DNA of 64,000 nt from Bacteroidia bacterium (GCA_036386835.1 DASVUX010000003.1:8552-72551); one strand, 5' to 3'; shown: positions 638 through 39,254, counted from the stretch's first letter. Notes: generated from the letters alone by a model not told the origin. Numbers and translations: made by a program.

Positions 638-2242
638 TTATCTGCTGATAACCATTTTTTGATGGATCACTTTATTATCACGGAAAAGGGAAACTGTATA
701 AATACCAGATACAAGGTCACTCACATCGACCTCCTGCATTTCCGACCGTTCTACCTGTTTCACTAAGCGGCCTTCAATTGTGTAAACTTGTAATTGCCAT
801 TCCCCATTTGCAGAAACAATAAATGAATTTGATGCAGGATTCGGTTGACAAAATAATGGTTGTTGAGAATTAGCTTCATTAATTCCTGCTGCTATACAAC
901 TCTCATACATAGCAATAAAGTTTGAACCATAATTTAGCATTGCAGTTCCTGCGCCCGGATCGAAATCGGCAGTATCTCCTACCGTCCCTGTCACAAGGAA
1001 ATTGCCCTGACTTGTAAATACCATCGAACTCGGATAATCTGGTTGCGTGCTGCCTATGGTAGAAAGACATTCCACTGTTCCTGAGGGGCTTAATGTCAAT
1101 AATACCACATCACTCCAGCCTGGTTGGGTGCTGTTTACCGTTATTGTTCCCGCCCCGGGATCAAAATCCGTAGGACCGGAAAAATATCCTGCTGCTGTTA
1201 AGGAACCGTTGTTAAATTGCAAACTGTTTAAAGTATTATATCCTGTTCCTTCAAATTGCCATGCATCAAGCGTAGTACCCGACTGGTCGAAATGAATAAT
1301 AAATGCATCTCTCATATTTGTAGCGTTCAGCGTTTCATTACTGGCGCTTCCCCAGGAAATAGTAGATTCGAAATTACCTGACACATATATATCACCCGCA
1401 GGACCATGTGTAACATCCCCGGCAGACATATACCCCCCGTTGAACGTTTTGGACCAGAGCAGGTTTCCTGACGCATCCAGTTTATTAAGAGAAATGAAAT
1501 TCATATCGTCTCCTAACTGAAGGATAGTTCCATCTGATTCAACATCGATTGCCTGACCTGTATGGGCAATGGCGGTAACCCAAACAAAATCTCCTGATGA
1601 TGTAAGCTTGAGGAGATATCCATCGTCATTAATATTTACAACAGGTGCACCCGGATCATAATCTGTTAATGGATCTCCATAACCCGTTAACAACAAGCCG
1701 CCATCATGGGCGAACTCCATTGCGAGCACACTTTGAGAATCATCTGCCCCGATATGTTTAACCCAGACAAAATCACCTGCAGACGTGAGCCTGCAAATAA
1801 AAATATCGGAAGGACTAGTAGCGGTTAAATAGGCCGTTCCTGAACCCGGATCAAAGTCTACAGTATTGTTGAATGTTCCTCCCACATACACATCACCGGC
1901 AGGAGAAACTGCCAAGGCATTAGCATACATATAGATTGTACCGGTGAATTGCTTTGCCCAGACAAAATCACCATTAGCTGTAAGCTTTGAAATGAAAATA
2001 TTTCCACCGCCTGATCCGGTTGGAGTGTTCAGATTAAAGATGCCCGGACCCGGATCAAAGTCAACCTGCCCGGAGAATTCCCCGGTTGTATAAACATTTC
2101 CGGACGCATCAACAGCTATTTTCTTACTTGTAATTCCTGAAGAAGCCGTGGCAGGAACCATTTGTTCAGCCCAATTAAGGGTATGCTGTGCGGCTACCTG
2201 ACCTGCACTAAAAATAGAGAGAAAAAGTATCAGTTTTTTCAT
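638..2242 (-). CDS. Secreted SBBP beta-propeller repeat protein with T9SS C-terminal sorting domain
   Basis: Signal peptide MKKLILFLSIFSAGQVAAQ at the internal ATG (2242). Repeated SGDFVW / DFDPGxG motifs. C-terminal ~80 aa match the T9SS type-A CTD (YTIEGRLV...GIYTVSLF). Confidence 0.6.
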   Translation of the reverse strand: MKKLILFLSIFSAGQVAAQHTLNWAEQMVPATASSGITSKKIAVDASGNVYTTGEFSGQVDFDPGPGIFNLNTPTGSGGGNIFISKLTANGDFVWAKQFTGTIYMYANALAVSPAGDVYVGGTFNNTVDFDPGSGTAYLTATSPSDIFICRLTSAGDFVWVKHIGADDSQSVLAMEFAHDGGLLLTGYGDPLTDYDPGAPVVNINDDGYLLKLTSSGDFVWVTAIAHTGQAIDVESDGTILQLGDDMNFISLNKLDASGNLLWSKTFNGGYMSAGDVTHGPAGDIYVSGNFESTISWGSASNETLNATNMRDAFIIHFDQSGTTLDAWQFEGTGYNTLNSLQFNNGSLTAAGYFSGPTDFDPGAGTITVNSTQPGWSDVVLLTLSPSGTVECLSTIGSTQPDYPSSMVFTSQGNFLVTGTVGDTADFDPGAGTAMLNYGSNFIAMYESCIAAGINEANSQQPLFCQPNPASNSFIVSANGEWQLQVYTIEGRLVKQVERSEMQEVDVSDLVSGIYTVSLFRDNKVIHQKMVISR

Positions 2243-2304
2243 AGGACGTTTTTTTTCAAGATTTGAGAAAAAAACATGCCGCAGAATATCATAACTAGTC
2301 AAAT

Positions 2305-9121: not shown

Positions 9122-11251
9122 ATGAAGAAAATACTACTCCTTGCATTCCTGCTGTCCGGCCTGCTGATCAGCGCACAAAGCAAAATGAATTTTGACCTTG
9201 CAAGAAAATTAAAAGAGCAGCCTCATTCAACTGACAACATCAATGTATTTATCAGTGGGAACAAGGATGTTATAAAACAACTCTGTACCGCTAACGGTGG
9301 GGTTTTCCGTTATTCCTCCGGAGATATTTCCACCGTTTCCGTACCTGTTTCTTCCCTGGGTATTTTCGCAGCGAACAGGCACATACAACGTATTGAAGCC
9401 TATACTCCACGTACAAAGCCATTAAATGACACCATGGTGATCCAGACAAATACAGCCCTGGTTCATGCCGGAGCCGCCCCCCTGGCCCAGGGTTATGATG
9501 GCAGCGGTGTGGTAATAGGTATCATCGACACCGGGATCGATTTTACCCATCCGGATTTCCGCGACAGCCTTGGAAACAGCAGGATCGACTTCCTCTGGGA
9601 CCAATCGCTGGCACAGGATACCAATACTCCGATGCCTTATAATTACGGGCAGGAATGGACGAATATCCAGATCGACAGCGGGCTCGCTTCGGCACATAAC
9701 GACCTTAATTATTCGGGACACGGTACCCACGTAGCCGGAATCGCGGTTGGGAACGGACTTGCAACAGGAACACATACAGGTGTTGCCCCCAAAGCGGATA
9801 TCATTGTAGTAGCCATCGATTTCAGCAGCAACTCTTCCACCCTGATCTCGGATGCTGTGGATTATATTTACTCACGCGCTGCTGCAATGGGGAAACCATG
9901 TGTTATTAATGCGAGCCTTGGTGACTATTATGGCTCACATGACGGCCAGGACCTGCAGGCGCAGATGATCCGCAGCATGATCGACTCGCAGGCGGGACTC
10001 GCTTTTGTTGCAGCGGCAGGCAACGGGGGAAATGTTCCTTTTCACCTTGGATATACTGTAACCACTGATACCAGTTTCACCTACGTAGAGCCTTCAGGGT
10101 CTTCTGCCTACATTCAAATGTGGTCGGATTCTGCTGATTTCAGTAATGTAAGGTTTTCAATCGGTGCCGACCAAATGAGCCCGTTTTCAAAGCGGGGACA
10201 TCTTCCTTTCTCCGGCATCAATGATCATCTCGGGATCCTCAGGGAAGATACGCTCTATAACAATGGCAACCGGATAGGCCGCGTCCTTAGCTATGGCGAC
10301 CAGATCAACGGTACTTATTCCATGGAGTTTGTTATTTATCCCGATTCAGCCTCCTACAACTGGCGGTTAATGACTACGGGCAGCGGAACTTTTGATGCAT
10401 GGACCTTTGACCTTTATTCGGGCATGCTACCTTCCGCATCCTCTATGCCCGACAGTATCTTCTATAAGCTTCCCGACAATAACAAAACCATCGTGAGCAG
10501 CTTTCTTTGCCTTGACAATGTAATTGGGGTCGGCAATTATACTAACCGCAAAACATACATCGATTACAACAATACTGTTTATGTGAACACGGCTACCAAT
10601 GCAGGTGAACGCCATGCGACTTCCAGCATCGGGCCTACCCGTGACGGCAGGATCAAACCTGAGATCTGCGCACCGGGCGACAATACGCTGGCAGCGGTTG
10701 TGCTTGCAATTGCGCCATCCATTATTGCAAACTATCCTGATGCACTGGCGCTGGGTGGATTTCATGTACGCAATGGTGGCACTTCTCATGCGAGTCCCTG
10801 CGTTGCAGGTATAGCTGCATTGTACCTGCAGAAGAACCCGAATGCAACAGCTATGGATGTAAAAAAAGCAATTGTCAACTGCCCGATCAGGGACTCATTT
10901 ACCGGCTCCGGGCTTCCTGATAACTACTGGGGTTACGGCAAAGTGGATGCAATGGGAGCGCTGACCTGCTCCCTGACAGGCACAGATGAGAATGAGCTTG
11001 CCGGATCAGCCTTTGCTGTTTATCCTAATCCTGCGATAAGCGGTACTCTTCTGAATATCAGCTTTCCATCACTGCAATCTGCAAATACCAATGAATTACG
11101 AATTTATAACACCCTCGGCAAGCTGGTGAAAATACTGGCACTGCAGGGAAAAGAGTCTTCATTCCGCACTGAATTAGGCACAGGACTTTACTTTTGCAGT
11201 CTTGTGGTGAACGGCAAGCCCGGAGCATCAAAAAAATTGATAATTTTGTAA
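9122..11251 (+). CDS. S8 family subtilisin-like serine peptidase with T9SS C-terminal sorting domain
   Basis: Catalytic D (IGIIDTGID), H (HGTHVAGIA), S (GTSHASPCVAGIAAL). Signal peptide. C-terminal FAVYPNPAISGTLLNISF...GLYFCSLVV CTD. Confidence 0.85.
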   Translation: MKKILLLAFLLSGLLISAQSKMNFDLARKLKEQPHSTDNINVFISGNKDVIKQLCTANGGVFRYSSGDISTVSVPVSSLGIFAANRHIQRIEAYTPRTKPLNDTMVIQTNTALVHAGAAPLAQGYDGSGVVIGIIDTGIDFTHPDFRDSLGNSRIDFLWDQSLAQDTNTPMPYNYGQEWTNIQIDSGLASAHNDLNYSGHGTHVAGIAVGNGLATGTHTGVAPKADIIVVAIDFSSNSSTLISDAVDYIYSRAAAMGKPCVINASLGDYYGSHDGQDLQAQMIRSMIDSQAGLAFVAAAGNGGNVPFHLGYTVTTDTSFTYVEPSGSSAYIQMWSDSADFSNVRFSIGADQMSPFSKRGHLPFSGINDHLGILREDTLYNNGNRIGRVLSYGDQINGTYSMEFVIYPDSASYNWRLMTTGSGTFDAWTFDLYSGMLPSASSMPDSIFYKLPDNNKTIVSSFLCLDNVIGVGNYTNRKTYIDYNNTVYVNTATNAGERHATSSIGPTRDGRIKPEICAPGDNTLAAVVLAIAPSIIANYPDALALGGFHVRNGGTSHASPCVAGIAALYLQKNPNATAMDVKKAIVNCPIRDSFTGSGLPDNYWGYGKVDAMGALTCSLTGTDENELAGSAFAVYPNPAISGTLLNISFPSLQSANTNELRIYNTLGKLVKILALQGKESSFRTELGTGLYFCSLVVNGKPGASKKLIIL

Positions 11252-18839: not shown

Positions 18840-20420
18840 CTACCTCATCACTTTCAGCAATGTAGTCGCGATCACATTCCCGCCATCAGCCTGTACGCGG
18901 ACAAGATAAGAGCCTGCAGCAAGCCCGTTGGTCTCAAGGTAAATGGAAGGATCCTGACCGTTGAACATTTGAGCGGTGACAGTTTTGATCACATTCCCCG
19001 TGATATCGGAAATATCAATGGTAAGAAAACGCGGTGCCCTAAGGTGCAATTGCAAAGTTGCATTTCCTGAAGTGGGATTCGGGAAGATCTTCATTTGTAC
19101 ATCCTCGTTCACCATTTCCTGCAGGCTTGTGAAATTTGTCAGCGGGGATTTATTAACGAAGATCTCTGTATTCCCGGCACGCAGGTCGCACCAGTTGCTG
19201 TACAGATAATTACCATCCAGGCACACTCCTATAAAATCATTTCCCCGCTGGATATTAATGAAAGGTGAAGCTGTGGAGCTTAGATTCTGGTCGGGGCTGA
19301 AAGTACTTCCGCCATCGGTTGAGACGCCCGCATAAATCTCGAAAGGGGATGATGAGGTACCGCCGGTATTGCGCCTGTCGCGCCATGCAACCGCATACTC
19401 ACCGGTTTCCGAAAAACCCGCCCAGCACATGTCTTGACCGGCACCGTTTGAAAGCGCATCTTTATTGACTCTTACTGGCGTAGTGTTCCATGTGCTGCCT
19501 CCGTTATTCGAATGCAGGCTGAGAATATCAGGATCACCGTTCCGCTGGTCGGTGAACGTGTAAATAAGATTATTCGCATTTACCGGGTTAGCGCTCAGGA
19601 CATAACTTCCCTGGTAAAGTGTATCCGTTAAGGGTGATCCGGCCGCAGCATACGCAATCAGCTTCGGAGTGAAGGTGTTTCCACCATCAGTGGATTTGAC
19701 ACAGATCGACCTTGGAAAAGGGTTTTGTGGAGGATTATAAGATATATAAGCAATATACAGGTTTCCATCAGCGCCAACAGTCGGAACTCCCATTGCATTC
19801 GGAATAAGGTTTATGGGAATGCTGTCGTCCACAAGCTTGATCGGGCTCCAGCTGCTGCCACCGTCAATGGAGGATTTCATCCAGATATGATGCGGCATTG
19901 CACCGATATCAATACTCTTGCTGACAACATACAGCTTGCCGTCATAAATGCCACCGCTGTTATCCACCGCGATCCAGGGGCGATCAATCGGCATGTCAGG
20001 GGTTTCGTTCATCGATGTGACTTTAACGGGCGTTGTCCAGTTCTGTCCTCCGTTCATGGACTTGGTGACCATCACATAACCGGAATCTTTGGAAGGCGCA
20101 TAATCAATGTATGTCATGTAAGCTGCACCTGATGAATGAAAAGCGATGGCAGGATCCGCCATGGTGAACTGCGGATGCAAATGCGGAATATTGGAAGGAG
20201 CGCTCCAGCTTGCACCTGCATCAGTGGAATAACTCACACCTATGCTTAAACCAAAACCGGACTGTCTCATCCATGCCGCGACCAAGTTGTTGGAATTGGT
20301 TGGATTAACGGCAATGTATGGTTCAGTATCCCAACCGGTGGCGGATGAGAGATTGATGTTGGTTTGCGCTAAAACTCCACAGCATACATTTACAAAAAAC
20401 AGTATTAAAATCTTCTTCAT
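18840..20420 (-). CDS. BNR/Asp-box repeat (sialidase-like beta-propeller) protein with T9SS C-terminal sorting domain
   Basis: At least six SxDxGxTW/F motifs (YSTDAGASW, SMNGGQNW, SIDGGSSW, STDGGNTF, SNNGGSTW, STDGGSTF). Signal peptide. C-terminal KIFPNPTSGNATLQL...GSYLVRVQ CTD. Confidence 0.75.
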   Translation of the reverse strand: MKKILILFFVNVCCGVLAQTNINLSSATGWDTEPYIAVNPTNSNNLVAAWMRQSGFGLSIGVSYSTDAGASWSAPSNIPHLHPQFTMADPAIAFHSSGAAYMTYIDYAPSKDSGYVMVTKSMNGGQNWTTPVKVTSMNETPDMPIDRPWIAVDNSGGIYDGKLYVVSKSIDIGAMPHHIWMKSSIDGGSSWSPIKLVDDSIPINLIPNAMGVPTVGADGNLYIAYISYNPPQNPFPRSICVKSTDGGNTFTPKLIAYAAAGSPLTDTLYQGSYVLSANPVNANNLIYTFTDQRNGDPDILSLHSNNGGSTWNTTPVRVNKDALSNGAGQDMCWAGFSETGEYAVAWRDRRNTGGTSSSPFEIYAGVSTDGGSTFSPDQNLSSTASPFINIQRGNDFIGVCLDGNYLYSNWCDLRAGNTEIFVNKSPLTNFTSLQEMVNEDVQMKIFPNPTSGNATLQLHLRAPRFLTIDISDITGNVIKTVTAQMFNGQDPSIYLETNGLAAGSYLVRVQADGGNVIATTLLKVMR

Positions 20421-20435
20421 CGTGAAAATTAATTT

Positions 20436-20468
20436 AATAAAACGCTTCCGCCCCTTAACGGGGCGGGA
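20436..20468 (-). terminator. Rho-independent terminator downstream of the PorP/SprF gene
   Basis: ccgcccc-ttaac-ggggcgg hairpin followed by gttttatt on the minus strand. Confidence 0.45.
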
Positions 20469-20481
20469 GTATTAGTAAAAA

Positions 20482-21855
20482 CTATTCCAGCTTCTGCAGC
20501 CAGACATCCGGATATTCATTCTTGTATTTCTGCTGTTCTGCTTCTCCTGTTTTCTGATCGTCTGTCTTCATCACATACACATAATACACTTTTGTTTTGT
20601 GGTTCTGGATCACAGAAGTGGACCTGTACCCTTTAATGATATTGGCTTCCTTGAATTTATTTGCGTTATCCTTGCTGCTGAAAGATCCGATCACAATATA
20701 ATACCCGGAATTCATGCTCATTCCGTTCTCATCCACGAAATCGTTGCTCAGGCCTGTACGCATTAAATTCTCTGTAAGATTTTCGCTGTTTCCGCTGCCC
20801 CCTCCATTTTTCATTTTCTGGAGCTCTGCTTTTAAACGCTCCATCTGTGCCTGGTTCGTATCTGCCTGCGCTTTCAGTTTTGCCAGCATCTGATCCGTCA
20901 GCGAATCTTTCGACTCTGTCCTTGTAACAACGGGAACCGGCTCTTCTGCGCGCCTGCCGCCTCCACCGAATGTATAGCTCAATAAAAATTCGGAAGATGC
21001 GCCTGTATATTTCGATACTTTACCAATGCCGAAATCATAGGCATAACCAACACTGAGGTTCTTATAGCGAACACCGATGCTTGCCGCAACAGCATAATCA
21101 CTGTGGTACGTAACCCCTACCCAGCCCATCTTTTTCCAGTCGAGCACCGCATTGATATCATACTGGAAGGGAACGCCTTTGGCACCACTCACGAAGATCA
21201 GAGGATAAGCTGTGATCTCTTTTTCCTTCACCACATCAAATACATACTTCACCGATCCCTGGAAGGTACGCGCAAGGTTGTAATAACTGTTCTCGCCAAG
21301 GTTGTTCTTGTATTTGATCTTGTTGCCCAATACCTGCGGAATTGCAAAGCCGACCTGCAGCTGCTTCCAAGTATAGCCCATGCCGAAATCAGCGCTGAAT
21401 ACTGTCCTGCTCTGGCGCTCATTTGAAAGGAAGGGATCATCAGTATCACGCACAACCGCTTTGGAGAAATCAATGCTGTTATTCAGCACCCCCAGCGCAA
21501 GCCCGAAGAATACATCCTGGTCATCGTTGATCTTCAGCTTGTAAGAATAATTTCCGGAGGCACCCATCCTGGATGTGATGTCGGTAACATCCGAATACAA
21601 CTTCAAACCAAGACCGATGTTCTTCGCTTCAATAGGGCCATCAAGCGTAAGATAGCTTGTCTGCGGACCGCCTTTTACGCCAACCCATTGTGAACGGTGG
21701 GTGATGAACGCACGTGTATGCTCATCGGTTGTTCCCGTGAAAGCGGGATTTGTAACAAACATATTGGTATAATACTGGCTGCTGAACGGTAACTGCTGTG
21801 CGAAGGCCGAAGCTGTAACAAGAAGTAAAGCTGCTGAGATATTTAGTTTCCTCAT
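20482..21855 (-). CDS. PorP/SprF family T9SS outer-membrane protein fused to a C-terminal SPOR domain
   Basis: N-terminal ~300 aa match PorP/SprF (QYYTNMFVTNPAFTG...RSQWVGVKGGPQT). A coiled-coil linker follows. The C-terminus YYIVIGSFSSKDNANKFKEANIIKGY...VYYVYV looks like a SPOR fold. Start at internal ATG (MRKLNISAALLL signal). Confidence 0.8.
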   Translation of the reverse strand: MRKLNISAALLLVTASAFAQQLPFSSQYYTNMFVTNPAFTGTTDEHTRAFITHRSQWVGVKGGPQTSYLTLDGPIEAKNIGLGLKLYSDVTDITSRMGASGNYSYKLKINDDQDVFFGLALGVLNNSIDFSKAVVRDTDDPFLSNERQSRTVFSADFGMGYTWKQLQVGFAIPQVLGNKIKYKNNLGENSYYNLARTFQGSVKYVFDVVKEKEITAYPLIFVSGAKGVPFQYDINAVLDWKKMGWVGVTYHSDYAVAASIGVRYKNLSVGYAYDFGIGKVSKYTGASSEFLLSYTFGGGGRRAEEPVPVVTRTESKDSLTDQMLAKLKAQADTNQAQMERLKAELQKMKNGGGSGNSENLTENLMRTGLSNDFVDENGMSMNSGYYIVIGSFSSKDNANKFKEANIIKGYRSTSVIQNHKTKVYYVYVMKTDDQKTGEAEQQKYKNEYPDVWLQKLE

Positions 21856-21893
21856 AGGATGTTGTTTTGCTGAATTTGTGATTGCTGCTCCCA

Positions 21894-24800
21894 TTATTTC
21901 TCCCCCTGTCTTAATACGGTGATCGCTCCCTTGTAAACCTTATCGGTGCCTTCCATCTCCACGAAATAATAATACGTTCCATCGGCTACCATATTGCCGT
22001 AGCTTTCCGATCCTGACTGCACCCTGCCGTCCCAGTTGTTATCATAGGCCTCTGATTTATAAACCACCTTTCCGCTCCTGTTCACTATGGTAAGCCGCGT
22101 ATTCGGGTAATTCTCCAGGTTCTGGATGATGAAACGGTCATTGTAGCCATCGTCATTCGGTGTCATCACATTTGATACTGTTAATTCAAAATCAACCAGC
22201 ACGGTAACCACCACTGAATCTTTGTCGGTACAGCCGTTCACATCTGTTCCAACCAGGAGATAAGTTGTAGTTGCAAGCGGGCTTGCCATCGGGTTTGGAA
22301 CAGAAACGCTGTTAAGACCGGTGTAAGGGCTCCACAGCCAGCTGATCACCCCGGCACCCATTCCGTTCAGTGTTATTGAGCTTCCCAGGCTTACGGTTGT
22401 ATCATTCCCTGCGAACACTACCGGTCCCGGAATTACCGTGATCACTTCCATGTTGTTCGTGGAGCAGCCGTTAACTGAATCTGTCACGATCACTACATAA
22501 GTTCCCGAAGTTGTTACAGTGATACTTTGTGTAGTATCGGAAGTGCTCCACATATAATCATAAGTACCTGTCGCGGCAGAAAGCACAACACTGTCACCCG
22601 AGCAGAAAGTAAGCGGTCCGCTTGCCGTGATCTCATTTGACGGCACTGCATTCACGATCACAGTGATCATGGCTGTATCCGCACAGCCCATGTTCGAAGT
22701 CGTCAAAAGGCTTGCATTATATGATCCGGCAGCAGCATAAAGATGCACGGGATTTACTGCAAGCGAATTGTTCCCGTCACCGAAATCCCACTGGTGAAAC
22801 TGGATCGATCCGGAAGGAATTGTTGAACCGTTCATGAAAGTCGTTACAGTTCCAAAACAGACAGTATCGGCAGCACCCATTGCCATTGGCTTAGGATAAA
22901 CAATTACGGTTGCCGCGGCAGAAGTATCAGCTGAGCAGATACCGCTTTGTACAATTACCCTGTACCAGGTTGTATCGGTTAAGTTAAGATAAGATTGGGT
23001 TGAAGTTGTGTTAGCAATCGCAGACCATGTTGCGCCTCCGTCAATTGATGATTCCCAGTTTTGAATTGCACCGACATATCCTGCAACAGTCAACGTCCCT
23101 GAATTAGCTCCTTCACAGCCTGCTCCAGCACCGCTGATCATTCCGGCAACGGAAACAGGTGTAACTGTAATCGTAACATTATTTGAAGTCACCGCATTAC
23201 AGATCCCGCTCTTTACAATAGCATGATACATTGTTGTAATGTTCAGGTTATTATAGATAAGTGAATCGGATGTACTTGAAAGTGGTGTCCAGTTGAATCC
23301 GCCATCCGTTGAAACTTCCCAGCCCTGGATCATCCCGGTGTATCCTGTTAAATGCAGCACACCATTATTCACGCCTGCGCAAACGGTATCGTTCATTGCA
23401 AGCGTTCCCGGGTTTGTGGGAGGATTCACATTGATTACAGCTGTTAATGATGTATCATTTCCGCAAAGGCCGCCGGAGATGATCACACGGTACCAGGTAG
23501 TATCCTGGAGATTGCTATATGAATGTGATGCTGATGTATTGCTGATCACCGACCATGTGGTCCCACCATCAGTTGAAGATTCCCATTGCATCACGGGACC
23601 GGACGAACCTGAAAGTGTCAGCATACCGCTGTTGATCGTATCACAAACCGTAGCCGAACCGTTCAGGGTCCCTCCGATGGCAACCTGATCAACCGTTATG
23701 GTCACCGCGTTTGAAGTCACTGCATTGCAGGTCCCGCTCTTTACAATAGCATGATACATTGTTGTAATGTTCAGGTTATTATAGACAAGTGAATCGGATG
23801 TACTTGAAAGTGGTGTCCAGTTGAATCCGCCATCCGTTGAAACTTCCCATCCCTGGATCATCCCGGTGTATCCTGTTAAATGCAGTACACCGTTATTTGC
23901 GCCTGCGCAAACGGTATCGTTCATTGCAAGCGTTCCTGGGTTTGTAGGAGGATTAACATTGATTACAGCTGTTGATGATGTATCATTTCCGCAAAGGCCG
24001 CTGGAGATAATCACACGGTACCAGGTGGTATCCTGGAGATTGGTATAGGAATGTGATGTTGATGTATTGCTGATCACTGACCATGTGAGGCCCCCATCCG
24101 TTGAAGATTCCCATTGCATCACGGGACCGGATGAGCCTGAAAGTGTCAACGTACCGCTGTTGATCGTGTCACAAACCGTAGTTGAGCCGTTCAGGGTCCC
24201 TCCTTCAGCGACAGGATCAACCGTGATGGTAACGATATTCGAAGTTGCTGCATTACACACCCCGCTTTTTACAAGAACCCTGTAAGAAGTAGTTTGTGAT
24301 AAATTAGAATACGGCTGTGAAGCCGTAGTGTTTGACAGGTTGATCCACGTTAAACCGCCATCGGTGGATGATTCCCAGTGCTGGATCGCCCCGGTTTGCC
24401 CGCTTAGTGTGAGTACCCCGGCATTGCTACCTGCACAAACCGTATCATCCGCTGAAAGAGTCCCGCCAGCAGTTGGAGGATCTATGGTAATTGTTGCAAC
24501 GGAAGATGTGTCCATTGCACAAACCCCGCTTTGAACGATCACGCGGAAAGCAGTGGTTACAGGGAGGTTCAGGTAATTCTCCGAAGCTGTTGTGTTTGCC
24601 GTTGCAGTCCATGTCGCACCGCCATCCGTTGATGATTCCCAGTTAAGTATTGTCCCGACATAATTGATCAGGTCCAGTGTACCGCTGTTCATTCCTCCGC
24701 AGGCTGTAGTACCTCCATTCAAAGTACCGCCTGCAGAAACCGGGTCAACGGTAAGTATGGCGGCCGCAGAATTCTGACTCGGGCATGAACCGTTTTTTAC

Positions 24801-26714
24801 CACAGCCCTGAACTGGGTAGTTAAAGTTAAGTTGGTATAGGTATAGGATGTTGCAGTGTTTGCGATGGCAACCCAGTTGATCCCACCGTCAATTGAATAT
24901 TCCCAGCGGACCACATTTCCTGTTTCTCCGGTAAGGTTCAATGTTCCCGTATTATTTCCGTAACAGATATTGCCGCTGGCGGTTACGGTCCCACCGACAG
25001 TCGGTGTGGTTACTGTAATCGTATCGATTGTGGATGTATCGGCCGGGCAAACACCGCTGGCTACTATAGCACGGTAGTAAGTTGTTGCAGCAAGATTTGT
25101 GTATGACTGTGAGGTTGTAGTATTTGTGATCGCATTCCAGGTGATGCCGTCACCCGATGATTCCCATCGCGTAATCGTACCTGTGTGACCGCTTAAAGTG
25201 ATTGTCCCGCTGTTGGCGCCACTGCAGACAGTATCATTGCTTGCGGTTGTTCCTCCGGCAGAAACCGGGCTGACAGTTATTGCTGCAACAGTAGAGTTTG
25301 AAGAAGCGCAGGTACCATTCTTCACATTTACCCTGTAAACGGTAGTCGCAGTTAAATTGAAATAACTTAATGTATCAGTTGTATTCGGGATATTGACATA
25401 AGTAGCCCCGCCATCAGTTGATGACTCCCAGTACTGTATGGTTCCGGTATAACCGCTTAGTGTCAGCACAGCCGTATTACTTCCGCTGCAAACTGCAGCG
25501 CTTGACGAGAGTGTACCGCCTGCTGAAAGCGGTGTGACTACAATTGAATCAGCGGTGGAATATGCAGCGGCACAGGCACCGCTTTTAACCAGCGCCCTGT
25601 AATAACGCGTAGCTGTTAAATTTGTATAAGTCTGTGTTGTGGTGGTATTGGTAATATTCGTCCATGTGCTTCCTCCATTCGTGGAAAACTCCCATCTTGT
25701 GATCGCACCGGTATGTCCCCCTAAAGTAAGTGTTCCGCTGTTGGTTCCGCTGCATACTGTTGTGCCCCCGGTAACATTCCCTCCAACTGTAGCCGGACTC
25801 ACTGTAATAATCCCCACGGAAGAAAACACAGGCGCACAGGCACCGCTTTGAACCTGCACACGGTAACGGGTTGTTGTGGTAAGGTTTGTATAAGACTGCG
25901 TTGCCGTAACATTGGCGATATCGGTCCATGTTGCACCGCCATCCGTTGAGAACTGCCATTTTAAAATATTCCCGGTCCTGCCGGCCGAAGTAAGGTTCCC
26001 GCTGTTTGTACCCGAACAAACTGTAGCAGCCCCGTTGATCGTCCCTCCAACCGAAACCGGATCGATGGTCATTGTGGCAATGGATGATGTTGCCGGGGCG
26101 CAGGCGCCATTCTGAACCTGTGCGCGGTACTGTGTCTGAACGGTAAGATTATTATAACTCTGGGATGTAGTGGTATTGGAAATACTGATCCATGTTGAAC
26201 CGCCATCGACCGAATATTCCCAGTTTGTAACAGAGCCTGTATGCCCGCTTAATGTAAGTGTTCCTGAATTAGTCCCGTTACATACGTTTGTACCTCCGCT
26301 TACTGTCCCCCCAGCAGACGGAGCTGTGGACGTAACCATATATCCCGTAGTTGCGTTATTGGTATTATTAATATCGGTCACTAAAGAAGAATATGCAGTG
26401 AACGTGTAATTACCGGCAGCAGAAAGGTTGGCTGGCGTGGTGAATGTATAAGAAGCCGTGGTATTGGGTGCAAATGAAGGGAAACTCACCAATGGATCGG
26501 TCACAGCGGCACCTGCATTTATAGTATAAGAAAGATCGAATGGCACACCGCTCAGATCGGTGAGCCCGACATTCTTAACTGAAATTGTCACAGCAGAAGC
26601 AGAACTTAATGAGCATCCCGAAAGGGGAGCCGTTATCGCTATAACACTGACATCCTGGGCAGCTGCAATTTTACCAATAAGAATAAGGGAAAAGAGCGTA
26701 AAGATTTTTCTCAT
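21894..26714 (-). CDS. Giant repetitive cell-surface adhesin with PKD domain and T9SS type-B (gliding-motility-associated) C-terminal domain
   Basis: 1606 aa. About 13 copies of an ~88-aa repeat (GGT..G..VC.G.NSGTLTLSG.TG....WE.STDGG.TW..I.NT....SY.NL...T.YR..V.SG.C). PKD-like segment (GDGNNSLAVNPVHLY). C-terminus TPNDDGYNDRFII...GTYYYFVE...GAITVLRQ = type-B CTD. Signal peptide at internal ATG. Confidence 0.85.
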   Translation of the reverse strand: MRKIFTLFSLILIGKIAAAQDVSVIAITAPLSGCSLSSASAVTISVKNVGLTDLSGVPFDLSYTINAGAAVTDPLVSFPSFAPNTTASYTFTTPANLSAAGNYTFTAYSSLVTDINNTNNATTGYMVTSTAPSAGGTVSGGTNVCNGTNSGTLTLSGHTGSVTNWEYSVDGGSTWISISNTTTSQSYNNLTVQTQYRAQVQNGACAPATSSIATMTIDPVSVGGTINGAATVCSGTNSGNLTSAGRTGNILKWQFSTDGGATWTDIANVTATQSYTNLTTTTRYRVQVQSGACAPVFSSVGIITVSPATVGGNVTGGTTVCSGTNSGTLTLGGHTGAITRWEFSTNGGSTWTNITNTTTTQTYTNLTATRYYRALVKSGACAAAYSTADSIVVTPLSAGGTLSSSAAVCSGSNTAVLTLSGYTGTIQYWESSTDGGATYVNIPNTTDTLSYFNLTATTVYRVNVKNGTCASSNSTVAAITVSPVSAGGTTASNDTVCSGANSGTITLSGHTGTITRWESSGDGITWNAITNTTTSQSYTNLAATTYYRAIVASGVCPADTSTIDTITVTTPTVGGTVTASGNICYGNNTGTLNLTGETGNVVRWEYSIDGGINWVAIANTATSYTYTNLTLTTQFRAVVKNGSCPSQNSAAAILTVDPVSAGGTLNGGTTACGGMNSGTLDLINYVGTILNWESSTDGGATWTATANTTASENYLNLPVTTAFRVIVQSGVCAMDTSSVATITIDPPTAGGTLSADDTVCAGSNAGVLTLSGQTGAIQHWESSTDGGLTWINLSNTTASQPYSNLSQTTSYRVLVKSGVCNAATSNIVTITVDPVAEGGTLNGSTTVCDTINSGTLTLSGSSGPVMQWESSTDGGLTWSVISNTSTSHSYTNLQDTTWYRVIISSGLCGNDTSSTAVINVNPPTNPGTLAMNDTVCAGANNGVLHLTGYTGMIQGWEVSTDGGFNWTPLSSTSDSLVYNNLNITTMYHAIVKSGTCNAVTSNAVTITVDQVAIGGTLNGSATVCDTINSGMLTLSGSSGPVMQWESSTDGGTTWSVISNTSASHSYSNLQDTTWYRVIISGGLCGNDTSLTAVINVNPPTNPGTLAMNDTVCAGVNNGVLHLTGYTGMIQGWEVSTDGGFNWTPLSSTSDSLIYNNLNITTMYHAIVKSGICNAVTSNNVTITVTPVSVAGMISGAGAGCEGANSGTLTVAGYVGAIQNWESSIDGGATWSAIANTTSTQSYLNLTDTTWYRVIVQSGICSADTSAAATVIVYPKPMAMGAADTVCFGTVTTFMNGSTIPSGSIQFHQWDFGDGNNSLAVNPVHLYAAAGSYNASLLTTSNMGCADTAMITVIVNAVPSNEITASGPLTFCSGDSVVLSAATGTYDYMWSTSDTTQSITVTTSGTYVVIVTDSVNGCSTNNMEVITVIPGPVVFAGNDTTVSLGSSITLNGMGAGVISWLWSPYTGLNSVSVPNPMASPLATTTYLLVGTDVNGCTDKDSVVVTVLVDFELTVSNVMTPNDDGYNDRFIIQNLENYPNTRLTIVNRSGKVVYKSEAYDNNWDGRVQSGSESYGNMVADGTYYYFVEMEGTDKVYKGAITVLRQGEK

Positions 26715-29731: not shown

Positions 29732-30271
29732 TTAATCAAATGGTTCGTCAGAAAACACGATAGTGATTACGCCTGTGGCTTCTTTTTCTGTTTTAACGGG
29801 CTTGATTACACGCTCTCCCTTATATCTTGAATTCTGAGGGTCTATATCGTAGGCAGGGAACCATTTATGGATCTCCTCAAGAAAATTAAAACAATACAAA
29901 TTCAACGGGGGAAGCTGGGCGATCCTTACTTCAGGATATGTAACATCTTTCATGGTTACCCTGCCTTTCCGCGAAACCGTTATATTAATCCTGACCACCT
30001 GGGTGCTTTTACCCCGCATGTCGACTTTTATATTACGGAACTTTTCCCGGAAATAAGCAGAATAGTTAAACGGAAAACCATAGCCTTCCACAATTGGGAA
30101 AGGTTGAAAACTATTCGGCCCTTTTGTATTGAAATCGGCTGATGCCATGATATAGACACGCGGATCCTTTGCCCGTTCGATCCTGATGGTTCCCTGGTGT
30201 TCAAGCGAATCCGTCTGTGAAAAGAGCGGGACAAAGAAAAACGACAAAACAATTAAATAAACGTATCTCAT
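29732..30271 (-). CDS. Secreted hypothetical protein
   Basis: Signal peptide MRYVYLIVLSFFFVPLFSQ; no recognised domain. Confidence 0.4.
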   Translation of the reverse strand: MRYVYLIVLSFFFVPLFSQTDSLEHQGTIRIERAKDPRVYIMASADFNTKGPNSFQPFPIVEGYGFPFNYSAYFREKFRNIKVDMRGKSTQVVRINITVSRKGRVTMKDVTYPEVRIAQLPPLNLYCFNFLEEIHKWFPAYDIDPQNSRYKGERVIKPVKTEKEATGVITIVFSDEPFD

Positions 30272-30370: not shown

Positions 30371-30811
30371 TTAATAAGTATGAATTTTGAAGCGGATGTT
30401 CATCCTGGTTGGTACAGGCTCCTGCGTGCATGTAGCCGGCATATAGAGTGGCATCAAACTTACAATTCGCTTAGCCTCGTTTTCAACTTCTTTGTCATTA
30501 ATCGGATCCAGTACTTTCAGAAAGGTTGATTTTCCATCTTTTTCAATCATATAGGAAAATTTCACCCATTCGTTGTCTTTGTGATTTTTAGCCGGGACCT
30601 TAAATTTAAAATCCTCGGTAATCAAAATCAATTCAGTAATAGTTGTGTCGGCAAATACAGGTTGAGTTTCCACATCCGTATAATTGTCCCTGCCAATTTC
30701 TTTATCAAAGACCGGTTTACATTTTTTGATCCGTCCTTTTACATTTTGCTGGCAAAACAGGGTATTGACAATAAAAACCGTGAAACAAAGCGTTACGAGT
30801 TTATTCTTCAT
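30371..30811 (-). CDS. Secreted TonB-C-terminal-like domain protein (weak)
   Basis: Signal peptide. Pattern VETQPVF...FSYMIEKDGK...DKEVENEAKRIVSLMPLYMPA resembles the TonB C-terminal fold. Confidence 0.35.
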   Translation of the reverse strand: MKNKLVTLCFTVFIVNTLFCQQNVKGRIKKCKPVFDKEIGRDNYTDVETQPVFADTTITELILITEDFKFKVPAKNHKDNEWVKFSYMIEKDGKSTFLKVLDPINDKEVENEAKRIVSLMPLYMPATCTQEPVPTRMNIRFKIHTY

Positions 30812-30847: not shown

Positions 30848-32560
30848 TCAGATATTAAAAAAGGCCTTCATATCCTCCATCGTTTTGAACTCCTGGTCTA
30901 CCCTTTTCATTAAAATTTCTTTATCGCCATTTTTTATACCTGCAAAATCTTCAGCACGCAGGTAATGAAGCACGCCATCTTCAACCGTCCATAAGACATT
31001 ACTCGACTTTGGATCAAATGTAAAGCGCTGAACAGGATTCTTCACATAAGTATATATTCCGTTGCGTTTCTTGTCGGCAAGAAAAATCTCATAACATTTA
31101 ATTTTCTGTTCGTCCTGCTTAACAAAAACTGCATTGCTGCAGATCACTCCCTGCGGATAAACACTTGGGTGATCACAATTATAAATCCCGAAGCTGCTGA
31201 TCATAAAAACCCTCTTTACTTTCTGCTCTGCGCCCATAGCAGCAAGTTCGCGGTCACGATCCCTTTTCCATTTTGCAAGTGCTTCTTCCTGCTTTTTCTT
31301 TGCAGCCAGGATCTTTGCCTGGTATTCTTCCTCTATTTTCTTTTCCTCCTGCTTCCGTTTTTCAAGACTTGCAGAATACTTGTCGAATTTTTCCTGGAAA
31401 CCTTTCATTGCAGCTTCATAATTCTTGCCTTCAAACACCGGGTAGACCACCAGCTCTACCTTCCGGGAACCTTTGAGAAGGTGAAGCACATAACTCTCTT
31501 CGCTTTTGTTTAAAGTGGCATCCTCCCACAAGGTTTTGTTCAGGTCCGCCCAGACAGCTTTATTTATGCCTTTATTCTCCGGGCTTAATTCCCACTGAAC
31601 ATTCTTATAAACACTGAATTCAGGGAATTCTTTAAGATCGAGCTCAAGATTGAATGTGTATTTCTCTTTATTAAGCTTTGCAGGCTTAACAGGCTCTGGC
31701 GGAGAATCCGGAAGCGCAGCCAGCTGTGTTGTCATCTCCGTTTTTGCTTCGGCTTTCTCTTTCTCTATCTGCCTGTATTCCTGCAATTGTTCAAATTCCT
31801 GTTCCGGAGCTACATTAAGACTTGTCCCCGGTTTGTCCGCAGACACAACCACCTTTTCCTTGCCGAGACATGACCAGTTATTTTTCACTGTATCCAGCTT
31901 GTATAAATTATAATGTGTTCCCTGCTGTTCTGATGCAAGCTCAACATTTATAGTCTTACCGGCAGCCATTTCCACCTGCTTTCCGTCTTTATAGGCCAGC
32001 ATTTCCATCATTCCTGCAGATTCGAAATGATACCTTCGACCTGCGCTGTCATACGTCATCGGGATGCCGCTTACGAAAAAATCAGCTACATCATGAAACT
32101 CACGGTATCTCAATTCAATCTCCCCTTTCAGTGGTTTTCCGTCTGCACCGGCAAATGCATTTTCAGGCACTGTCAGCCTGGAGCCTGTCCCGAACTCAAA
32201 AGAGCCGCCCTTCTCTGCATTGACTTTATACACAACGTAGGGAACATTCAGGCCTTTAAGAGGCGGGGCGATGCATGGTTTTGCTTCTTCCGTTTTATAG
32301 AATTCCGACAAGCCGCTGTCTTCCTGTCCCTGGACTACCGGTGCAGTACTTTTAACGACTTCTTTTTTATCACCCAGGAGCAGGATAGTGGTCACCACTA
32401 CCGCAGTGAGAGCAACTACACCTGAAAGGAACCAGGGCTTTTTAAACAATGGTTTCTGAACCAGGGTTGATGAATTTTTCAAAACCGAATTAAAGTCTTT
32501 GCGCTGGCTGATCTCATCTGCACTTACTTCCTGGCGGTTAATGTTAATTTTTCGTTTCAT
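30848..32560 (-). CDS. Putative anti-sigma factor (single-pass membrane protein) cognate to the upstream ECF sigma factor
   Basis: Sits immediately downstream of the ECF sigma gene on the same strand. Short cytoplasmic N-terminus, one TM (WFLSGVVALTAVVVTTILLL), large periplasmic domain with coiled-coil. Not a FecR-type domain. Confidence 0.45.
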   Translation of the reverse strand: MKRKININRQEVSADEISQRKDFNSVLKNSSTLVQKPLFKKPWFLSGVVALTAVVVTTILLLGDKKEVVKSTAPVVQGQEDSGLSEFYKTEEAKPCIAPPLKGLNVPYVVYKVNAEKGGSFEFGTGSRLTVPENAFAGADGKPLKGEIELRYREFHDVADFFVSGIPMTYDSAGRRYHFESAGMMEMLAYKDGKQVEMAAGKTINVELASEQQGTHYNLYKLDTVKNNWSCLGKEKVVVSADKPGTSLNVAPEQEFEQLQEYRQIEKEKAEAKTEMTTQLAALPDSPPEPVKPAKLNKEKYTFNLELDLKEFPEFSVYKNVQWELSPENKGINKAVWADLNKTLWEDATLNKSEESYVLHLLKGSRKVELVVYPVFEGKNYEAAMKGFQEKFDKYSASLEKRKQEEKKIEEEYQAKILAAKKKQEEALAKWKRDRDRELAAMGAEQKVKRVFMISSFGIYNCDHPSVYPQGVICSNAVFVKQDEQKIKCYEIFLADKKRNGIYTYVKNPVQRFTFDPKSSNVLWTVEDGVLHYLRAEDFAGIKNGDKEILMKRVDQEFKTMEDMKAFFNI

Positions 32561-37565: not shown

Positions 37566-39254
37566 ATGAAAAAACATTTACTATTTTTCCTGCTCATCCT
37601 GCTCAACCTGCATCCTGTTAAGTCCCAGGATAAAAACAATGTCCCTGGCGAATTACTGGTGATGCTTAATCCTGCAGCAAGTCCTTATAAGATGCAGTCG
37701 GATCTCTCCGTTTTAAAGGATAAAAATACGCGTCTGAACATTACACGCACGCTGTCTGCAAGCATGCACATCTACTTGATGACATTTGACCACCTCAGCA
37801 TTCACGAAGATCTGATGCTGAATGCCGTGAGAAGCTATCCCGGTGTTCAGATCGCACAGTTCAATCATTATGTGAATGAACGGAATACCGTTCCAAACGA
37901 TCCGCAATTCGGTGTAATGTGGGGTATGGAGAACACAGGTACCAATGGTGGTGCCGGAGCTGTAGCTGATGCAGATATTGATGCGACAACTGCATGGGAT
38001 GTAACCACGGGAGGCCTGACCTCTGCGGGTGATACAATAGTGGTTGCCGTGATTGACGGAGGTTTTTCCTTAACCCATCCCGATCTTATTGATAATTACT
38101 GGAGAAATTATGACGAGATCCCGGACAACGGGGTTGATGATGATCTCAATGGCTATATTGATGATTTTAACGGATGGCATTCTTCCTCCAACAGCGATAA
38201 TTTTCCCTCACAAAGCCATGGTACCCATGTGGCCGGGACCATTGGTGCCAAAGGGAATAATGGCATCGGGGTTACAGGCGTGAACTGGAATGTAAAAATA
38301 ATGCCGATCAGCTACGGATCAGGCTCAGGGTCGTTTGAGTCGAACGTAGTGGAAGCTTACGCTTTTGCGAGAGACCAGCGCAGGGAATATGATCTCAGCA
38401 ATGGAACCAAAGGTGCTTTTGTAGTAGCTACCAACTCTTCTTTCGGGGTGGACCTAGCTTCACCTTCTTCTTATCCTTTATGGTGCGCCATGTATGATTC
38501 CCTTGGTGTGCTTGGGATTCTCAGCGCAGGCGCCACTGCAAATGCCAACTATGATGTGGATGCACAGGGTGATATCCCCACTGCATGTCCAAGCGATTGG
38601 CTTATCACTGTAACTAACTTAAAAAGCAATGATACAAAAGCAAATGCAGGTTTCGGAGCTTCGATGATCGACCTGGGCGCACCGGGAACCAATATTACAT
38701 CCACCTATTACAGTACGAGCAGCGGGTCAAACAATTATAATTCCAGTTCAGGAACATCGATGGCAACCCCGCATGTTGCCGGTACAATCGGATTACTCTT
38801 CTCTGTGCCCTGCCCTCATTTCATCCTGAATTACAAAGCGGATCCGGCAGGCATGGCTTTGATCATAAAAGATTCAATCCTGGGTTCCACCGACCCGGTA
38901 GCAGCGCTTGATGGAATAACCCTTACAGGCGGACGCCTTAACCTCAACAAGGCAGTTAAATCTATTCAGAATTATTGTGCCGCAACATCTGTGTCTGAAA
39001 TCAGCCACAATTCAAATCAATCAGGAATCTCCAGGGTGTATCCCAATCCCGCTGATCAAAGTGTGTTTGTCGAGCTAAATGCTGATCAGAACAGCAACTT
39101 AATCATCACAAATGTTTTGGGACAGGAAATCAAAAAAATTGAAGTAAAGGCTGCGGATAAAATGATTATTAATATCAGCGAACTTGAAAAAGGTGTTTAC
39201 TTGTTCAGTCTTGAAAATAGCCCTGGGCGCGCTGTTAAATTAATTGTTCACTAG
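37566..39254 (+). CDS. S8 family subtilisin-like serine peptidase with T9SS C-terminal sorting domain
   Basis: D (VAVIDGG), H (HGTHVAGTIGA), S (GTSMATPHVAGTIGLL). Signal peptide. C-terminal RVYPNPADQSVFVELN...GVYLFSLE CTD. Confidence 0.85.
   Translation: MKKHLLFFLLILLNLHPVKSQDKNNVPGELLVMLNPAASPYKMQSDLSVLKDKNTRLNITRTLSASMHIYLMTFDHLSIHEDLMLNAVRSYPGVQIAQFNHYVNERNTVPNDPQFGVMWGMENTGTNGGAGAVADADIDATTAWDVTTGGLTSAGDTIVVAVIDGGFSLTHPDLIDNYWRNYDEIPDNGVDDDLNGYIDDFNGWHSSSNSDNFPSQSHGTHVAGTIGAKGNNGIGVTGVNWNVKIMPISYGSGSGSFESNVVEAYAFARDQRREYDLSNGTKGAFVVATNSSFGVDLASPSSYPLWCAMYDSLGVLGILSAGATANANYDVDAQGDIPTACPSDWLITVTNLKSNDTKANAGFGASMIDLGAPGTNITSTYYSTSSGSNNYNSSSGTSMATPHVAGTIGLLFSVPCPHFILNYKADPAGMALIIKDSILGSTDPVAALDGITLTGGRLNLNKAVKSIQNYCAATSVSEISHNSNQSGISRVYPNPADQSVFVELNADQNSNLIITNVLGQEIKKIEVKAADKMIINISELEKGVYLFSLENSPGRAVKLIVH

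Follow-up and report, generated by a model that had tools for sequence, protein, structure and literature searches.

Can a single polypeptide both receive a secreted protein at the cell surface and fasten it to the cell wall? This question is raised by two adjacent genes in a 64,000-nucleotide stretch of DNA from a Bacteroidia bacterium (GCA_036386835.1 DASVUX010000003.1:8552-72551; hereafter the window), which may form a cargo and partner module of a type IX secretion system (T9SS). Gene A (21894..26714, minus strand) encodes a secreted repeat protein of 1606 amino acids (aa), a putative adhesin, and gene B (20482..21855, minus strand), directly downstream, encodes a PorP/SprF-family outer-membrane protein of 457 aa that is fused to a SPOR domain. 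What holds type-B T9SS cargo on the cell, and why SprB moves while other cargo is static, is an open question, and the model in which PorE bridges such cargo to the wall has so far rested on one pull-down in Porphyromonas gingivalis and on gene neighbourhood in Flavobacterium johnsoniae. We propose, with a probability of about 60%, that gene B is a cognate shuttle and also an anchor that tethers the gene A product to peptidoglycan in cis, as has been proposed for PorE in trans.

Both open reading frames (ORFs) lie on the minus strand where an initial annotation of this DNA had placed them, and its assignment of the downstream gene to the PorP/SprF family is borne out. The barrel of gene B (residues 20-296 of the 457-aa form; 20968..21798, minus strand) matches TIGR03519 at 224.7 bits (cut-off 90.55) over model positions 6-292 of 292, and PF11751 (PorP_SprF) at 213.9 bits (cut-off 22.3). 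In an AlphaFold2 model of the full-length protein, built from a 44-sequence alignment, the barrel occupies residues 47-296 at a predicted local distance difference test score (pLDDT) of ~65-92 and its final strand reads ...SSEFLLSYTF; residues 299-363 are of low confidence, and the C-terminal domain has a pLDDT of ~90. A Foldseek comparison of the whole model with the PDB returned FadL as the best match, while PorV of the T9SS translocon (8gl6_F and 6h3i_F, template modelling score 0.53) ranked 4th and 33rd. The predicted FadL/PorV-like barrel fits the published view of PorP and SprF as PorV-like shuttle barrels. All 50 listed fold matches of the full-length model were barrel proteins, and the tail was hence modelled alone.

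The tail ends in a SPOR module (residues 364-457; 20485..20766, minus strand), in which a beta-alpha-beta-beta-alpha-beta core is preceded by one additional strand (LTENLMRT...DFVDENG) on the N-terminal side. PF05036 matches it at 32.1 bits (cut-off 21), across residues 396-466 of the 470-aa form described below and model positions 3-74 of 76. The tail-only AlphaFold2 model (residues 355-457) reaches a pLDDT of 90.4 and a predicted template modelling score of 0.81, with its elements in SPOR order, and its top Foldseek matches in the PDB are CwlC (1x60; E 7e-3, probability 1.0), DedD (6ztg) and RlpA (6i05 and 6i09, the latter a glycan complex); four of the five best matches are SPOR domains. 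Searched by sequence against PDB entries with phmmer, the tail gave only a marginal match to CwlC (E 0.012), over the beta1-alpha1 motif. Sequence and fold agree on SPOR, as had been suggested from two strings, YYIVIGSFSSKDNANKFKEANIIKGY and VYYVYV, both of which are present in gene B. Residues G384, G390, N397, G409, Y410, N418, D450 and W452 of the tail are invariant. At E values up to 1, Pfam found no OmpA, CarboxypepD_reg, TPR or PD40 domain in gene B; having no PorE-type domain, it cannot be counted among the PorE homologues, although its function may be equivalent.

Barrel and SPOR module are joined by a low-complexity linker (residues 297-363; 20767..20967, minus strand), inside which lies one conserved helix motif, LAKLKAQADTNQAQMERLKAELQKMK (residues ~322-350; nt 20806-20892, minus strand), that is shared across 44 homologues. 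What had been called a coiled-coil linker is thus present in the form of a single conserved four-heptad motif; AlphaFold2 draws a helix at residues 318-349, at low confidence only (block-mean pLDDT <50). With ~65 residues, including a helix of ~4 nm, the linker would be long enough to reach the wall. Weak Pfam matches in the linker to DnaI_N, DUF3616 and TraF_2 were all under their cut-offs and were dismissed.

The partner of this barrel is a type-B cargo protein, as the initial annotation had it. Gene A opens with a signal peptide (MRKIFTLFSLILIGKIAAA, followed by QD) and ends in a type-B T9SS C-terminal sorting domain (CTD; residues 1512-1606; 21897..22181, minus strand), which matches TIGR04131 at 50.8 bits (cut-off 35) over residues 1513-1602 of 1606 and CHU_C (PF13585) at 82 bits; the type-A CTD model gives 15.7 bits, under its cut-off of 23. 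Type-B cargo is known, with experimental support, to use cognate and usually adjacent PorP/SprF-like shuttles (PMC12618676), and the gene pairing observed here matches that rule. In related loci we located cargo CTDs by jackhmmer, starting from the CTD of gene A. Wherever a fetched locus included upstream DNA, the gene directly upstream of the PorP-like gene had a type-B CTD, save in L074, the locus of a very distant homologue, in which the CTD gene is downstream and on the other strand. The arrangement, recognised from the outset as a known one, is hence conserved. The flanking genes vary between loci, while the upstream gene always carries Ig_7, PKD and CHU_C domains by Pfam (the upstream gene of L005 was left out). 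Tandem double pairs of cargo and PorP genes occur in some metagenome-assembled genomes (MAGs) and in Pontibacter. On a short 3.4-kb contig, a type-B CTD (~770-858) and a PorP barrel (from ~905) share one ORF of 1149 aa (L050:3-3449; P0130), which either fuses cargo and partner or has arisen through loss of a stop codon or misassembly.

By their architecture, the related loci grade from a separate PorE-like gene to the minimal fusion, and we regard this series as Rosetta-stone support for tethering. At one end (L059, L062 and L072) the cargo gene is followed by a plain 320-aa PorP and a separate OmpA-domain gene, the arrangement known from F. johnsoniae. By Pfam, the separate gene of L059 has the PorE architecture of TPR, PD40, CarboxypepD_reg and OmpA, and that of L062 has the same without CarboxypepD_reg; that of L072 was recognised solely by a home-made OmpA profile. 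In L042-44 and L047 the barrel itself is fused to a CarboxypepD_reg domain (CRD) and two OmpA domains, and the next gene (L042:9588-11486; likewise in L043, L044 and L047) encodes a signal-peptide protein with helix-motif repeats and a terminal SPOR domain homologous to the window's (Pfam 25.3 bits). The unit of helix and SPOR thus occurs both as its own gene and as a fusion.

Two loci unite all of these parts in one chain: PorP, a weak CarboxypepD_reg match, OmpA, 18 helix motifs and SPOR in L035:6881-11599 (1573 aa), and PorP, OmpA, seven helix motifs and SPOR in L055:5930-9679 (1250 aa). The motif number in L035 is a minimum, as a run of N falls in the repeat region. The repeat unit of both proteins measures ~40 aa, made up of a 26-aa helix motif and a Pro/Thr-rich spacer, and has no Pfam family and no known function. 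In L041 the cargo gene is followed by a PorP with five motifs and SPOR, and the window and its orthologues carry the minimal form of PorP, one motif and SPOR. Altogether, the motif is present in 1-18 copies in paralogue tails and in the SPOR proteins that related loci encode separately. Neither the window nor most orthologous loci yielded a separate OmpA or PorE-like ORF; among the latter only L028 and L039 have an OmpA-type ORF, and in neither does it adjoin the PorP gene. A further variant, L049:6935-8311, from a MAG labelled 'uncultured Bacteroidetes bacterium' (Kiruna_bin-09443), lies downstream of a type-B cargo gene and has a barrel ~56% identical to the window's, with a 150-aa tail that matches GldN (PF19841, 38.5 bits, cut-off 23) instead of SPOR. 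This tail may preserve, as a fusion, the contact that has been reported between PorP and the PorK/N ring.

The fusion is widespread: far from being an isolated case, it is the usual layout in a large group of environmental Bacteroidota that has gone unstudied. A word-indexed search with gene B found 228 proteins, and among the 120 listed identity ranged from 100% down to 45%; nearly all of these are ~455-510 aa long and carry PF11751 and PF05036. Their sources name them only as 'PorP/SprF family', with the domain pair visible in precomputed annotations. The two-domain architecture recurs in >200 clusters and is far beyond chance. The barrel by itself, searched exhaustively with phmmer, had 9191 matches among 1.84 billion representatives, and the best 150 were used for tail counts. 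Identity among the 148 nearest barrel matches is 31-69%, and 90 of them hit a profile built from the SPOR tail of the gene B family. The tail types found are SPOR, OmpA, both and, rarely, GldN-like; Pfam on the first 98 nearest barrels gave SPOR in 22, OmpA in 18, TPR in three, CarboxypepD_reg in two and GldN in one. On a neighbour-joining tree of the barrel domain the SPOR- and OmpA-tailed members are interleaved, which suggests repeated tail swapping.

A survey of tail frequency had been called for. Of the 148 nearest barrel matches, 142 are complete to the end of the barrel, and 126 of these 142 (89%) extend for 100 aa or more beyond it. The partner is indeed ~160 aa longer than the canonical SprF or PorP of ~320 aa, as was pointed out initially, but a tail is the norm in its own clade, and the protein is 'extra' long only by comparison with the canonical forms. 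Every tailed member named by its source comes from a MAG or a metagenome, and the only matches from cultured organisms, in a scan of species-representative genomes, are plain 320-aa Pontibacter PorPs at 26-29% identity. A literature search, with most subscription journals outside its coverage, found no description of PorP-SPOR or PorP-OmpA fusions.

These observations suggest how genes A and B may operate as a two-gene T9SS module of cargo and partner. The gene A product would be exported by Sec and then recognised by the T9SS through its type-B CTD, and the gene B barrel, by analogy with SprF, Fjoh_3951 and PorP, would take this cargo from the translocon and hold it on the cell surface. Beyond the last barrel strand the chain would run on into the periplasm, through the flexible linker and short helix motif to the SPOR-fold domain. 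Both termini of outer-membrane barrels are in general periplasmic, and we therefore place the tail in the periplasm, as the analogy with OmpA would also suggest. There it would tie the barrel, and thereby the surface protein, non-covalently to peptidoglycan. One polypeptide would thus do the job of a separate PorE-like protein (TPR, propeller, CRD and OmpA_C) for 'static' type-B cargo, and the gene A product would be immobile. The PorP/PorE idea of wall anchoring would here be realised as a fusion, by means of a SPOR domain. One element of the initial annotation does not survive: it had the tail tether the T9SS 'export site', but PorP/SprF-like proteins are described as shuttles and anchors and not as the export pore (PMC12618676, PMC9143113), and what is tethered would therefore be the cargo's final anchor. 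Overall, that interpretation was right at the level of domains and is plausible at the level of mechanism.

The proposal is close to what is known from cultured species. Gorasia et al. demonstrated a PG1035-PorP-PorE complex in P. gingivalis; in the published model PorE links PorP, and with it PG1035, to peptidoglycan. They suggested that type-B proteins which do not move are fastened to the wall by PorP-PorE-like pairs, and that those which move, SprB among them, have a PorP-like partner alone (PMC9143113). That system shares with ours a type-B cargo on a PorP barrel that is bridged to peptidoglycan, by our proposal in the case of the window. It differs in having a single PorP that is also a core T9SS component and a PorE bridge in trans (PMC9143113), whereas the window protein has many paralogues, each specific to a cargo, and would bring its own bridge. 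In F. johnsoniae, static cargo is encoded in operons with PorE homologues (PMC9143113, PMC12618676), and in a 2025 study Fjoh_3952, which has the PorE-like neighbour Fjoh_3950, behaves as static (PMC12618676). The Fjoh_3952/3951/3950 operon resembles the window in that a repeat protein bearing a type-B CTD is followed by its own PorP/SprF-like gene (PMC12618676), in that a peptidoglycan-binding element, putative in the window, is co-encoded and in that the surface protein is proposed to be static and wall-anchored. In that operon the wall element is a separate PorE-like protein with OmpA_C, whereas in the window it would be a SPOR domain that the barrel carries at its C-terminal end, in a protein without TPR, propeller, CRD or OmpA domain. 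In contrast, no porE-like gene adjoins sprF in F. johnsoniae, and SprB travels along the cell (PMC9143113, PMC12618676); the window partner differs from SprF in its tail of wall-binding type, which predicts immobility.

Likenesses extend to other envelope proteins. Like gene B, OmpA-type proteins combine a barrel, a flexible linker and a periplasmic domain of wall-binding type, with the terminal aromatic strand of the barrel internal to the chain. The OmpA barrel has 8 strands, whereas that of gene B is a larger FadL/PorV-like one (SprF has been drawn as 14-stranded; PMC9143113), and the wall domain is OmpA_C in the former and of SPOR fold in the latter. RlpA likewise reaches peptidoglycan from the outer-membrane side by means of a SPOR domain. 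It is a lipid-anchored lytic transglycosylase that keeps the canonical SPOR glutamine (PMC6895207), whereas gene B has a barrel as anchor, no enzyme domain and a valine.

This substitution is among several points that weigh against wall tethering by gene B. The glutamine, in strand beta1, is the only side chain that is highly conserved among SPOR domains of known structure, and in RlpA (Q270) and FtsN (Q251), as also in DamX, it hydrogen-bonds the lactyl group of N-acetylmuramic acid that denuded glycan exposes (PMC6895207). When phmmer aligns the tail to CwlC, Val388 of gene B takes its place, and across the 44 aligned family members this column holds Val in 34, Ile in 10 and Gln in none. In Foldseek the SPOR matches have weak E-values (7e-3 to 0.4), as a ferredoxin-like fold of 75 aa would lead one to expect, and several paralogue SPOR tails score 18-19 bits, just under the Pfam cut-off. 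The presence of OmpA_C and SPOR in one tail (L035, L055) suggests that SPOR is not simply a substitute for OmpA_C. A wall-tethered barrel must still meet the SprA translocon to pick up its cargo, a step for which the proposal does not account. Finally, all family members are from uncultured organisms and their roles are predicted ones. Since the contacts between SPOR and glycan are mostly made by the main chain, from the conserved fold (PMC6895207), and since other residues of the sheet, Q417/N418 and W452, are invariant in the family, we consider peptidoglycan binding by the tail plausible. Targeting of the classical septal kind would be less certain than binding itself.

Such targeting is nevertheless the most serious competitor to a stable wall tether. 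If the tail bound glycan denuded by amidases, the barrel and its cargo would gather at septa and new poles, resulting in polar or septal display. The tail scores above the SPOR cut-off and is predicted to fold accordingly, and every SPOR domain characterised so far, one of them from Cytophaga, binds denuded glycan and is found at the septum (PMC6895207; bioRxiv 10.1101/2022.07.01.498525). The Bacteroidota domain CHU2221 binds denuded glycan with a dissociation constant of ~0.8 uM (bioRxiv 10.1101/2022.07.01.498525), a precedent that speaks for wall tethering as well. That OmpA_C and SPOR stand together in some paralogue tails would also be understood if the two recognise different features of peptidoglycan. 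However, the key glutamine is absent across the family, and denuded glycan is transient and ill suited to a stable anchor, so that we hold septal display to be rather improbable. The missing glycan-contact residue can also be taken to mean that the tail does not bind peptidoglycan at all and instead serves as a scaffold between proteins, linking PorP barrels to each other or to the periplasmic PorK/N (GldK/N) ring. The helix motif, of which paralogues have as many as 18 copies and which recurs in a separate secreted protein whose gene lies beside a PorP-OmpA gene, points in this direction, as do the GldN-like domain that L049 bears in place of SPOR (PF19841, 38.5 bits), the reported contact of PorP with PorK and the co-purification of PorK/N with PorE-PorP-PG1035 (PMC9143113). 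Against a scaffold, sequence and fold are both specifically SPOR, glycan contacts of this domain come mostly from main-chain atoms (PMC6895207), and within the same clade the tail occurs in place of, or together with, OmpA_C, a bona fide binder of peptidoglycan. We regard this explanation as somewhat less probable still than septal display. An artefact of assembly or gene calling, or a decaying gene, can be rejected as very improbable. The PorP-SPOR gene is split into two overlapping ORFs in L011 (161-376 and 342-1535) and L045 (6938-7624 and 7450-8364), which could reflect a frameshift, a pseudogene or a sequencing error, but the architecture is uninterrupted in >200 clusters from independent samples and in most of ~68 loci from species-representative genomes, and the tail has invariant residues. 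Tethering of the gene A product to the wall by gene B remains the reading that we favour.

The start of gene B and its surroundings deserve comment. The longest ORF (20482..21894) would begin at an upstream ATG at 21894 and encode 470 aa, with the gene A stop and this ATG overlapping as TAATG. The true start is likely the ATG at 21855, because public gene calls and most homologues start there and a normal signal peptide results (MRKLNISAALLLVTASAFA, followed by QQ); the gap between the genes is then 38 nt. A 457-aa protein 100% identical to gene B (P0001, from a MAG named Bacteroidia bacterium) is annotated as 'PorP/SprF family T9SS membrane protein'. The stop codon lies at 20482-20484 and is followed by what, by eye, appears to be a terminator-like hairpin (20436..20466, minus strand; CCGCCCC-GTTAA-GGGGCGG, AAGCG, TTTTATT). 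This hairpin is absent from the list of a terminator consensus scan, its T-run beginning 5 nt past the stem, and the counts of the promoter and terminator consensus scan as a whole were at shuffle level. An Rfam search of the window gave no match.

Gene A starts at the ATG at 26714 and stops at 21894-21896. A longer ORF with a GTG start would reach 26753; public gene calls on identical contigs also give the 1606-aa form. Pfam reports Ig_7 (12 times), PKD_4 and CHU_C. Most of the protein consists of 13 tandem immunoglobulin (Ig)-like repeats of 88 aa (~residues 120-1263; 22926..26357, minus strand), on which Ig_7 (PF19081) scores 84.8 bits in 12 stretches. Twelve of the 13 were located by the motif W-[EQ]-x-S-x-[DN]-G-G, whose anchors are 88 aa apart with one gap near residue 517, and the 13th is deduced there from the spacing. 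The repeats as printed bear an Asp-box-like S-x-D-G-G-x-T-W motif and a Cys pair. A PKD domain follows (residues 1275-1353; 22656..22892, minus strand; PF18911, 51.1 bits, cut-off 27). Tandem Repeats Finder, with its period limit of 500 nt, found no repeat in gene A, and another repeat search revealed periodicities of 88 aa and 528 nt. One 528-nt unit, two Ig-like repeats long, is present in duplicate with ~89% DNA identity (window 23146-23718 against the stretch shifted by 528 nt), which points to recent repeat expansion. The orthologous cargo genes encode proteins of ~530 to at least 2600 aa.

Genes A and B are the only type-B pair in the window, in which use of the T9SS is otherwise heavy. 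Five other genes end in a type-A sorting domain (Por_Secre_tail), at 638-2302 (minus), 9122-11251 (plus), 18840-20420 (minus), 37566-39254 (plus) and 49129-53283 (plus). Their products are two S8 subtilases, a BNR/sialidase-like protein, a beta-propeller protein and a 1384-aa RCC1-repeat protein with Ig_7; the BNR/sialidase-like gene lies directly downstream of gene B. Elsewhere in the window, ORFs of 570 aa (30848-32560, minus) and 179 aa (29732-30271, minus), which adjoin a small TonB_C-like ORF (30371-30811), had no Pfam match at E values up to 0.01.

A PorP-SPOR fusion will be no great surprise to a T9SS specialist. Natural fusions that place SPOR, OmpA_C or both on a PorP barrel do, however, provide independent genomic support for the wall-bridging model, and gene B offers a single-gene construct with which the static-versus-mobile model can be put to the test. 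The family also draws attention to a SPOR variant without the canonical glutamine and to a repeated helix motif without a described function. More tentatively, we suggest that the tailed PorPs may represent a large and unstudied clade of uncultured Bacteroidota in which periplasmic modules (the Gln-less SPOR, the PorE-like CRD-OmpA unit, the GldN-like domain and 1-18 copies of the 26-aa helix motif) are interchangeable, with SPOR reading a distinct feature of peptidoglycan and the helix repeats linking anchors to one another. We think this broader picture doubtful as it stands. If it is true, the anchors would be joined through the helix repeats into a scaffold in the periplasm, and the SPOR tail would go beyond standing in for PorE: it would read denuded septal glycan or a new ligand of the Gln-less variant, thereby fixing the site at which each type-B protein is displayed.

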